Below, in pieces: positions 19,898 to 20,966 of a stretch of 27,972 bases of DNA. The DNA is from an archaeon (GTDB taxonomy: Archaea > Nanobdellota > Nanobdellia > Pacearchaeales > GW2011-AR1). The notes under the pieces were generated by a model. The model was not told where the DNA came from and did not search any database. It worked only from the letters and a program-made list of their open reading frames with translations. Location of the stretch: positions 1 through 27,972 of the forward strand of contig JAZDPV010000005.1 of assembly GCA_043797265.1 (NCBI GenBank). Reading direction: 5' to 3'. The number at the start of each line of letters is the position of its first letter. The first letter of the stretch is position 1. The translations under genes were made by a program, and so were the position numbers.

Positions 19898-19916
19898 ATA
19901 GATAATATTATAAATT
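19898..19916 (+). promoter_or_regulatory. TATA-type tRNA promoter, copy 1
   Basis: ATAGATAATATTATAAATT, identical to 20119-20137. Confidence 0.6.
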
Positions 19917-19988
19917 CGTTTTGGGTTTGAAAAGTAGAGCCCATAGTTTAAAGTAACGGCGAAGCCGTTTCATGAAAACTATGGGTAT

Positions 19989-20116
19989 GAGCCCATAGTT
20001 TAATGGATAGAACATCAGGTTTCGGCCCTGAAGATTGCTCGCAAAATGCATTTCGCAATCAAATTTATTTTTATTTTAGATTGCTCGAAGCGTTTTGCTC
20101 GGAGTTCGAGTCCCCC
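19989..20116 (+). pseudogene. Interrupted tRNA-Arg(UCG) copy: 5' 47 nt identical to the intact gene, hairpin insert, variant T-arm, no 3' acceptor strand
   Basis: 19989-20035 equals the first 47 nt of the tRNA; insert 20036-20100; GGAGTTCGAGTCCCCC at 20101-20116. Confidence 0.8.
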
Positions 20117-20118
20117 TT

Positions 20119-20137
20119 ATAGATAATATTATAAATT
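20119..20137 (+). promoter_or_regulatory. TATA-type tRNA promoter, copy 2
   Basis: 19-nt exact repeat of 19898-19916, at nearly the same spacing to the leader and tRNA. Confidence 0.6.
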
Positions 20138-20211
20138 ATCTTTCTTGAGAATATTTGTGAGCCCATAGTTTAAAGTAACATTAAAATGTTTCATGAAAAC
20201 TACGGACTTGT

Positions 20212-20283
20212 GAGCCCATAGTTTAATGGATAGAACATCAGGTTTCGGCCCTGAAGATGGGAGTTCGATTCTTCCTGGGCTCG
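20212..20283 (+). tRNA. tRNA-Arg (anticodon UCG), intact, no encoded CCA
   Basis: Cloverleaf GAGCCCA/TGGGCTC, D-arm GTTT/GAAC, anticodon arm TCAGG-TTTCGGC-CCTGA, T-arm GGGAG-TTCGATT-CTTCC. Confidence 0.95.
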
Positions 20284-20304
20284 TGTCGAACTCGTATTCA
20301 ATTT

Positions 20305-20394
20305 GATGGGAGTTCTGATTCGCAATTTGCATTTCGCGAAAATAATATTTTGAATAGTTTTCGCTCGAAGCGAATTGCTCACTTCCTGGGTTCG
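20305..20394 (+). repeat. Duplicated tRNA-Arg 3' end interrupted in the T-loop by a hairpin insert
   Basis: GATGGGAGTTC (20305-20315) ... CTTCCTGGGTTCG (20382-20394), flanking hairpin 20322-20378. Confidence 0.8.
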
Positions 20395-20414: not shown

Positions 20415-20966
20415 ATGAATAAAAAAAACAGAGAAGAAAGGGCAGAAAAATTTTTGCCGTTGATTCATTATATTTTGCGGGAGCATGGGATTAGAAGAGG
20501 GAATCCTTATAGAGATAATTATTTTGAAGCAGGACTTGTCGGATTAGCAAAAGCTTTGAATGGTTATGACGGGCGCGTAACTTTTTTGACTTACGCATAT
20601 AGTTGTATTGAGAATGAAGTTTTAAATGAGGCGGTGAAATATTGGAGAGGCAAAGAGAAGATGTGGAGGACTGTGAGAGGTTTGGATTGTTTTTTGTGGG
20701 GGATTGTTGCAGATGGGGGAGATAGTCCTTATGATAAGGTAGAGAGAGAGGAAGATATATCTTTATTGATGAGGCTTGTTGATGAGTTGCCTTCTCGGAG
20801 CAGAAAGATTATTAGGTTGCGTTGTGAGGGGATGACTTTTAATGAGATTGCTGAAGTTGTTGGCCGTGATTCCAAGAAAGTTGGAGGGCATGCTATCCAA
20901 TATTCTTATGCGAGGTCGTTGAAGAAGTTGAGGAGGATGTTTGAGAGAGAGGTTGGTGTCCATTAG
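20415..20966 (+). CDS. Bacterial-type sigma-70 family protein (regions 2 and 4)
   Basis: Region 2-like DNYFEAGLVGLAKALNGYD..TFLTYAYSCIENEV; region 4-like LPSRSRKIIRLRCEGMTFNEIAEVVG...RSLKKLR. Confidence 0.85.
   Translation: MNKKNREERAEKFLPLIHYILREHGIRRGNPYRDNYFEAGLVGLAKALNGYDGRVTFLTYAYSCIENEVLNEAVKYWRGKEKMWRTVRGLDCFLWGIVADGGDSPYDKVEREEDISLLMRLVDELPSRSRKIIRLRCEGMTFNEIAEVVGRDSKKVGGHAIQYSYARSLKKLRRMFEREVGVH

Follow-up and report, generated by a model that had tools for sequence, protein, structure and literature searches.

A probable hairpin insertion element lodged in copied tRNA gene ends of a DPANN-type archaeon

Four kinds of described DNA come close to the subject of this work, a hairpin of ~62–66 nucleotides (nt) that occurs twice around a tRNA-Arg(TCG) gene in a 27,972-nt stretch of archaeal DNA (contig JAZDPV010000005.1 of assembly GCA_043797265.1; this whole stretch, numbered on its + strand, is called the window here). 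The first kind comprises the repetitive extragenic palindromic (REP) sequences and bacterial interspersed mosaic elements (BIMEs) that go with REP-associated tyrosine transposases (RAYTs), together with the palindrome-associated transposable elements (PATEs) of IS200/IS605. These are short, non-coding, imperfect hairpins in many copies, with a short motif at the 5' foot and compensatory changes in their stems, all of which the element shares, and their orientation is tied to replication asymmetry. The second comprises Rickettsia palindromic elements and MITEs (miniature inverted-repeat transposable elements), small non-autonomous palindromes kept where they are tolerated, as the element is, here even in an rRNA gene. 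The third is the recombination site that works as a folded single strand. Integron attC sites carry R''/R' boxes (RYYYAAC / GTTRRRY) and extrahelical bases, accompany gene cassettes and depend on an integron integrase, and the attP(+) site of CTX phage is used by Xer; like the element they have about 60 nt arranged as stem, unpaired centre, stem and variable loop, and they behave in a strand-specific way. Thermoproteales offer a separate comparison, tRNA introns with a non-canonical bulge-helix-bulge (BHB), for which transposition has been proposed. The fourth kind is the displaced tRNA end, the attR-type partial tRNA copy left by integrase-mediated insertion (Williams 2002 and Reiter 1989, as cited in PMC9897764). 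Where PMC9897764 deals with partial tRNA genes, it treats them solely as scars of 9–23-kb integrated elements or as CRISPR spacers. How does the tRNA-Arg locus compare with these systems? For each of the four, at least one defining feature is missing here, and the element adds a new type to the small palindromic elements that are non-autonomous, set apart by its unusual and regular placement in regenerated tRNA gene ends. Our reading, which is probably right, takes both inserts for copies of one non-coding hairpin insertion element, ~62–66 nt long and lodged at the DNA level in copied tRNA gene ends. A full-text search of the literature turned up neither an account of hairpins inserted into partial tRNA genes in DPANN archaea nor an archaeal MITE that targets tRNA genes.

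The first copy (insert 1) occupies 20036–20101 on the + strand, with a TG tail, a closing pair C20038:G20101 and a core at 20039–20100, and is supported by its fold, by covariation and by a match of 76 bits to a covariance model (CM). The second (insert 2) occupies 20316–20381, also on the + strand, with a TGA tail, a closing pair T20319:A20381 and a core at 20320–20380; here the support comes from the fold and a CM match of 79.1 bits. Insert 1 is hosted by a tRNA-Arg copy that lies upstream of the intact gene and is truncated; there it separates the variable loop from a remnant that resembles a T-arm. Insert 2 is hosted by a 3' tRNA-Arg fragment downstream of the intact gene, where it interrupts the T-loop. 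A preliminary description of this DNA had placed two bulged hairpins at these sites, which is correct, although the limits it gave were slightly too narrow, leaving out the 5' tail and the closing pair. The shared core it had pointed to, GCATTTCGC..GCTCGAAGC, occurs twice in the window against 0 expected from 100 shuffles. Both inserts adopt one two-stem hairpin fold (z about -2.8), and the consensus of the element reads 5'-(Y)TR-Y-TC-GCAAWWTGC-A, then a variable inner stem and loop, then A-GCGWWTTGC-TC-R-3'. Going inwards, the fold opens with a Y:R closing pair and a 2x2 loop of TC/TC, continues with a stem of 9 bp and an internal loop of small size, and finishes with a covarying inner stem of 6–9 bp and a T-rich end loop. 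In place of a 5x5 'bulge', the fold and the variants seen among the copies make an A.A mismatch followed by two weak pairs and a 2x2 loop more likely. Readings of the conserved loop as a K-turn, an H/ACA or C/D box or a hammerhead were rejected by eye, the required GA pairs or boxes being missing.

Is the structure kept from copy to copy? The compensatory stem differences remarked on between the two inserts extend to the whole family. Across 11 copies of this genome all 150 of 150 stem cells are paired and 8 of the 15 pairs have changed on both sides, a value reached in 0/500 shuffles. Among 73 copies from relatives, 95.8% of the cells are paired and 13 of 15 pairs covary, in an alignment that was fitted to the model and thus leans towards the structure. 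The ends of the element can be fixed as well. The closing pair (-1/+1) is Watson-Crick in 84 of 92 distinct copies compared with 44.9 after shuffling, with none of 2000 shuffles as high, and no pairing is seen at positions -2/+2 to -4/+4; it is the presence of the closing pair, together with the lack of pairing farther out, that sets the limits. The bases around it are strongly biased: on the 5' flank Y stands at -1 in 94/94 copies, R at -2 in 79/94 and T at -3 in 71/94, and on the 3' flank R stands at +1 in 90/94. This shows that the element travels as a unit of ~62–66 nt with a 5' T-R tail.

How many copies are there, and where do they lie? The genome is a 625-kb DPANN-type assembly of 18 contigs (C1–C18), 83% complete. 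A CM built from 11 copies finds 21 element copies on the motif strand (E < 1e-3). Of these, 19 lie within or next to a partial or duplicated tRNA gene, 15 different tRNA genes being represented, one lies within the 16S rRNA gene and one is intergenic. The genome-wide check reveals a preference for tRNA genes. Rfam recognises only tRNA and small-subunit rRNA near the copies, the one group I intron match given below aside. The same association is found elsewhere: an intact tRNA lies within 200 nt of 49 of the 73 relatives' copies and of 40 of the 57 copies on 51 metagenome contigs, and several of the remaining copies have tRNA-end-like flanks or sit at contig ends. At two loci (L194 and L257) Rfam finds intron-bearing tRNAs, missed by ARAGORN, beside copies that had been scored as tRNA-less. 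The element is present in 31 of the 36 genomes of the genus, five having no match, and in none of 24 genomes from eight other families of the order; a viral contig collection gave 0 matches. A 16-mer scan of a genome collection returned mostly chance matches in unrelated bacteria; the metagenome-assembled genomes with the motif carry the labels Woesearchaeota, Pacearchaeota or Nanoarchaeota. Among the genomes searched, the element is found only in one genus of very small DPANN (Woesearchaeota/Nanoarchaeota-type) archaea.

Three copies or their surroundings deserve a separate word. The 16S copy (C14:142–199) lies in sense orientation in the 5' region of the gene, at what we read as the tip of a variable hairpin, and the contig stops inside the gene. 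The intergenic copy, at C14:22043–22100, has no tRNA nearby, and no RNA was recognised in its region; it is followed by a perfect palindrome (GACGGCGCCGTC) and bracketed by a 15-nt inverted repeat (GCAAATTAAAATTTT), and upstream of it lies a 30-nt motif that is found again on C17, behind tRNA-Cys. This region may be a small RNA gene that has gone unrecognised. In a relative (locus L213, 1722–1924, contig G032:C30), an Rfam match to a group I catalytic intron (65 bits) lies ~80 nt from a hairpin copy with flanks resembling a tRNA end.

The surroundings of the copies are stereotyped. Read on the motif strand, most copies stand in a module that consists of a first segment (s1) made of the first 10–18 nt of the nearer tRNA gene end, the hairpin, a second segment (s2), an inverted copy of s2, a filler of a few nt and then the complete gene. 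The first segment begins no more than ~2 nt from the end of the gene, and s2 is the next ~8 nt of the gene. Between the two about 3 nt of the target are lost, 3 nt being the commonest value (21/51); the lost bases are often GAA, the reverse complement of T54-T55-C56, the last base of s1 is C in 29/51 and the next target base is G in 39/51. Insertion sites fall in the T-loop, the T-stem, the D-loop or the anticodon arm, and the distance from the hairpin to the intact gene is most often 20–33 nt. With this order of parts the working tRNA is preserved, and the hairpin survives in a dead spare end. Both gene ends are used: in 3'-end modules the hairpin is mostly antisense, whereas in 5'-end modules, known for tRNA-Leu, tRNA-Phe and tRNA-Cys, it is sense, and in the tRNA-Leu 5' modules of several species the D-loop position is always the same. 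Tandem arrays of two to three modules occur at C9 and C12. At six loci (C9, two on C12, C3, C16 and C18) the inverted copy of s2 crosses the insertion point and keeps the lost bases, without the hairpin. This architecture indicates that the inverted segment was copied from a hairpin-free template.

The modules are also polar. The intact tRNA lies 3' of the hairpin on the motif strand for 46/49 relatives' copies and 35/40 metagenome copies. In this genome a manual reading finds the same in 14 of 17 tRNA-linked modules, and a script finds that 15 of 19 copies are followed by an intact tRNA at no more than 260 nt. Is polarity with respect to the gene accompanied by a rule for the chromosome? The GC skew is one-signed on all 18 contigs, between 0.29 and 0.53 in size, independent of gene direction and with no switch of sign in any contig. 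The motif strand is the G-rich strand for 21 of 21 copies in this genome, in which the tRNA genes themselves are split 16 vs 16 across the strands by our own count. Among relatives the motif strand is the G-rich one in 37/46 copies at loci with an absolute skew of at least 0.15, the skew over 3–4 kb being a noisy proxy for replication direction.

Do the copies move? The C3 (tRNA-Gly) and C9 (tRNA-Ile) copies are identical, and insert 2 differs at 1 of 61 positions from the copy at C12:79189–79249, which lies antisense behind tRNA-Thr(CGT), in the opposite orientation relative to the tRNAs. The interiors of 57 copies, each with an assigned tRNA, were compared with one another. For 16/57 interiors the nearest neighbour belongs to the same genome but sits at a different tRNA, and for 3/57 it comes from another genome and sits at the same tRNA, and pairs at least 85% identical make up 3.7% of those within genomes vs 0.4% of those between genomes at different tRNAs. 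Hairpin interiors thus group by genome and not by tRNA, which points to exchange or re-insertion within genomes; the hairpins would not have been inherited with their loci, and the site that recurs for each tRNA would then reflect target choice. Transposition is what these comparisons suggest. The preliminary description had proposed a mobile hairpin of small size, with tRNA as its target and partial duplications left behind, and the tRNA contexts of 19 of the 21 copies, the near-identical copies at different tRNAs and the grouping of the interiors all support that proposal.

If the element moves, what moves it? This genome has one Y1 (IS200-type) transposase gene, three tyrosine recombinase genes 5–12 kb from the nearest hairpins, and two XerA-like paralogues that are 38% identical to each other. 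XerA-like recombinases are found in 33 of 36 genomes of the genus vs 20 of 24 outside it and are uninformative either way. The Y1 transposase as mobiliser was rejected for its missing co-occurrence with the hairpin. One region, C18:84883–87294, holds the second XerA-like recombinase, an open reading frame (ORF) for an HNH-type endonuclease and the truncated-looking Y1 transposase with flanking hairpins of its own, which are unlike the tRNA-end element.

The reading of the inserts as copies of an insertion element builds on the structure and ends of the hairpin, its association with tRNA genes, its polarity, the strand rule in this genome and the near-identical copies at unrelated tRNAs. Several results weigh against it. 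None of the enzymes examined (Y1, TnpB and XerA-like) emerged as a mobilising enzyme: the single Y1 gene is apparently truncated at its N-terminus, the Y1 family (PF01797) is present in 6 of 36 genus genomes, four of the 31 hairpin carriers and two of the five non-carriers (absence being read here from genomes 69–92% complete), and no TnpB was found in this genome. Nor did a long element between the two halves of the hairpin turn up in this genome, and unpaired 5' and 3' halves bracket nothing convincing. No pair of empty and filled sites was obtained among the species of the genus, which are too diverged for it (0/40 genomes match the neighbouring gene). Gene conversion between copies could also yield near-identical copies, and long retention in streamlined genomes, the same site per tRNA across species and covarying stems could equally speak for a function. 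In addition, 9 of the 46 relatives' copies violate the G-rich-strand rule, and the mismatch counts (20 G.T vs 34 A.C, the invariant T.G column excluded) do not tell which strand folds.

How could a module arise with its target rebuilt? The process has to account for a duplication that starts at the gene boundary and for a junction to the intact gene that lies at the gene's first base. In the model that we infer, a DNA 3' end at the gene boundary would be extended, displacing the old strand. The extending end would stall in a tRNA arm, switch to a hairpin donor and copy the hairpin, return to the target for ~8 nt and then fold back onto the displaced strand. The new end would be ligated to the 5' end of that strand, the whole process being coupled to replication, and the next replication round would fix the insertion. 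If donor and target were available solely as exposed single strand, the strand rule would be explained too. A dedicated structure-specific recombinase or nuclease is just as possible, and the sharpness of the ends and the conservation of the 5' tail speak for such an enzyme. It is tempting to see here a movement of DNA that has not been described, in which a hairpin without any protein is copied into tRNA gene ends by replication-coupled strand displacement and template switching, rebuilds its target (‘self-healing’) and has its direction set by the exposed strand. We put this forward tentatively and consider it rather doubtful. Were it true, replication would restart preferentially, and in a polar manner, at the tRNA genes of ultra-small genomes, and the direction of the forks could be read from the modules. 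Every copy in this genome is on the G-rich strand, usually with the dead copy before the live gene, and the modules may report the direction of replication in organisms that cannot be cultured. For those who study mobility the element poses a puzzle: its ends are defined, its preference for tRNA ends is strong and a working gene is always left, yet no recognisable transposase comes alongside. There is a practical side as well. Hairpin-plugged tRNA-like fragments in DPANN genomes could be mis-annotated as intron-bearing, split or extra tRNA genes; at the locus described here ARAGORN and Rfam call the intact tRNA-Arg only.

Among the kinds that come close to such an insertion element are MITEs and Rickettsia palindromes, and folded recombination sites. 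The outer stem of the element could pass as 13-bp inverted repeats, but instead of the short direct duplication of fixed length that goes with a MITE there are a direct repeat of 10–18 nt and an inverted one of ~8 nt; moreover, no autonomous parent was found in this genome and the target tRNA end is regenerated. As for attC and CTX attP(+), the consensus has no RYYYAAC/GTTRRRY boxes, there are no ORF cassettes and no linked recombinase, and the target is duplicated.

Could the hairpin instead be doing something for the tRNA loci in which it sits? It might be a functional cis element, either a signal for replication priming or fork handling that would fold on the G+T-rich strand while this is single-stranded in a very asymmetric replication, akin to the light-strand origin that mitochondria have within a tRNA cluster, or an element of transcript processing or termination. 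A good deal is consistent with this. The strand rule is absolute in this genome, which has a mitochondrion-like strand asymmetry, the hairpin is conserved with compensatory changes in 31 of 36 species, its end loop is T-rich and it stands in a fixed position with respect to the intact gene. Modules at 5' ends have the promoter-like box on one side and the tRNA on the other and would be transcribed as a leader. We nevertheless think a function of this sort unlikely, given that 16 of the 31 ARAGORN tRNA genes of this genome have no hairpin, that five genomes of the genus had no match, that the strand rule is broken by the relatives' copies mentioned above and that placement in dead fragments and in arrays of two to three units (C9, C12) looks like debris.

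A different origin for the partial tRNA copies would be as attachment-site scars of the attL/attR type, produced by tyrosine integrases crossing over in tRNA arms, with the hairpin as the remnant of the integrated element. An element that integrates into a tRNA gene classically leaves a partial copy of the 3' end behind, as PMC9897764 presents it. At the loci studied here an intact tRNA likewise stands near a displaced copy of one of its ends, the breaks fall in symmetric arms, and the genome has its three tyrosine recombinase genes. The details fit less well. Only ~90–110 bp lie between the direct repeats, and dozens of loci share one stereotyped make-up of this DNA; the partial copy is split by the hairpin, which does not lie between the repeats; an inverted segment is always present; and 5'-end modules occur in addition to 3'-end ones. 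No integrase is encoded within 5 kb of the hairpins, the viral contig collection gave no match, and none of the 59 relatives' and 51 metagenome loci has a full-length integrated element bracketed by the same repeats. Integration scars are, in our view, an improbable source of the modules.

The preliminary description had also considered an unusual intron or a signal for joining split tRNAs, that is, an archaeal BHB intron at a non-canonical tRNA position, or its split-tRNA counterpart, removed by the splicing endonuclease. There are likenesses: the introns of Thermoproteales are small structured inserts too, they occupy varied tRNA positions including the T-loop and related inserts occur in different tRNAs of one genome, and the copy in the 16S rRNA gene, which is in sense orientation, sits in a gene that must stay functional. 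Can a BHB be drawn? The copies were scanned for a strict motif (3-nt bulge, 4-bp helix and 3-nt bulge, plus flanking helices), with the reverse complement as one control and the tRNA-Glu(CTC) intron as another, whose canonical sites at 37/38 are recovered. That no clean BHB can be drawn holds for insert 1 and not for insert 2, around which one strict motif exists, with an exon ending in GGGAGTTC, an intron from TGATTCGC to GCTCAC and an exon resuming with TTCCTGGG. It arises from the TGAT flank and TCGC pairing with GCGAATT, and from GCTC pairing with GAGT of the T-arm. The same geometry is found at an interrupted full-length tRNA-Trp copy (C1) and at the copy behind tRNA-Asn (C6). In all, 3/21 copies have the motif on the motif strand vs 2/21 on the reverse complement, which leaves 18 of the 21 without it, and the cuts predicted for insert 2 would leave GGGAG-TTC-TTCC, a T-loop of 3 nt. 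Furthermore, the host of insert 1 has no acceptor 3' strand and that of insert 2 no 5' half, an uninterrupted intact gene stands beside nearly every copy, and the motif strand is antisense to the tRNA for 42/49 relatives' copies and 37/40 metagenome copies that have an intact tRNA no farther than 200 nt away. With the query used, no splicing endonuclease domain (PF01974) turned up, a weak point in a genome that is 83% complete. A canonical BHB intron explains neither the family nor insert 2, and excision by splicing is very improbable. Joining of the Nanoarchaeum type, in which separate 5' and 3' half genes have mutually pairing flanks and no intact gene exists for that tRNA, is not supported; an intact tRNA-Arg(TCG) lies between the two fragments, each of which has its own complete hairpin. 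Ordinary introns are present in the genome all the same: the tRNA-Glu(CTC) gene at C1:6090–6296 has a 134-nt intron with a clean BHB at 37/38, and the tRNA-Asn gene at C6:6601–6704 one of 29 nt, yet there is no PF01974 match in the assembly.

A REP- or PATE-like derivative of IS200/IS605, which a Y1 (HUH) transposase would mobilise in trans in single-stranded form, is hardly credible either, for although the element has an imperfect hairpin with a short conserved 5' tail, a 5' YTRY motif, similar pentamers at its 5' flank (TRYTC) and 3' end (TGYTC), a strand bias relative to replication asymmetry and one Y1 gene in the same genome, that gene looks truncated and has hairpins unlike the element, Y1 fails to co-occur with it across the genus, IS200/IS605 insertion gives no target duplication, and the strict lodging in duplicated tRNA ends, with direct and inverted repeats derived from the target around each copy, is foreign to REPs and PATEs.

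The window locus, for which tRNA calls were made with ARAGORN and Rfam, can now be laid out in full; all features are on the + strand. A tandem duplication of ~220 bp surrounds the tRNA-Arg gene, and each unit consists of an A/T-rich box, a leader and then the tRNA or its copy. The box (ATAGATAATATTATAAATT) lies at 19898–19916 in the first unit and, aligned with it, at 20119–20137 in the second, where the 19-mer is repeated; the two boxes are predicted to be promoters from their spacing of ~22 nt upstream of the first tRNA-like base. Within the leader, the first ~15 nt of the tRNA are copied directly and are followed by a mini-hairpin of 23 nt (hp2) and an inverted copy of the tRNA start. By sequence and alignment, the first leader spans 19937–19985, with a direct copy of tRNA-Arg nt 1–15 and hp2 at 19952–19974, and the second 20159–20206, with hp2 at 20174–20195. 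The truncated tRNA-Arg(TCG) copy follows at 19989–20035. It comprises nt 1–47, identical as far as the variable loop to those of the intact gene, has no 3' strand of the acceptor and is called as a tRNA by neither ARAGORN nor Rfam. Behind insert 1, starting from its closing base, a diverged T-arm-like remnant (GGAGTTCGAGTCCCCC) extends over 20101–20116, a weak match to tRNA positions 50–61 with no acceptor strand after it. This locus is a long variant of the module, in which promoter-like box and leader have been duplicated as well.

The intact tRNA-Arg(TCG) gene occupies 20211–20284 (ARAGORN; Rfam tRNA, 65.4 bits). Downstream come a short inverted copy of the 5' part of the T-arm (CGAACTC, 20287–20293), which matches the inverted segment at other loci, and a direct partial copy of tRNA-Arg with the variable loop, the 5' strand of the T-stem and TTC of the T-loop (20305–20315). 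Insert 2 follows, and after it the direct copy continues at 20382–20394 with the 3' strands of T-stem and acceptor (CTTCCTGGGTTCG); these assignments were made from the sequence. The insert 2 locus has the layout of a standard 3'-end module, but with the hairpin flipped. Genes for GatD/GatE and a pyruvoyl arginine decarboxylase lie near the locus and, together with the 625-kb size of the assembly, indicate an archaeon of DPANN type. A neighbouring reading frame of this archaeal DNA, at 20415–20966, encodes a protein of 183 amino acids with weak matches to sigma-70 regions 2 and 4; among 40 genus genomes none matches it at E<=1e-10.

Two further hairpin families accompany the main one. The mini-hairpin hp2 (AGTAAC..GTTTCATG) has seven copies in this genome, all on the G-rich strand: the two of the window, C2:10719–10741, C2:9852–9874, C16:40483–40505, C18:78318–78340 and C18:78379–78401. 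Four of the seven (those of the window, C2:10719 and C16:40483) stand at the D-loop position of a partial 5' tRNA copy, and three have no tRNA-like flank; the stems of the two window copies differ from each other in a compensatory way. The third family (..ACTTCACTCTAAAATTTTTC..GAAAAATTCGAGCAAAG..) was seen at C9:~300–420 and C7:3434–3500 (loci L008 and L161). It replaces the main hairpin in one unit of a tRNA-Ile array and sits after the main hairpin at tRNA-Phe.

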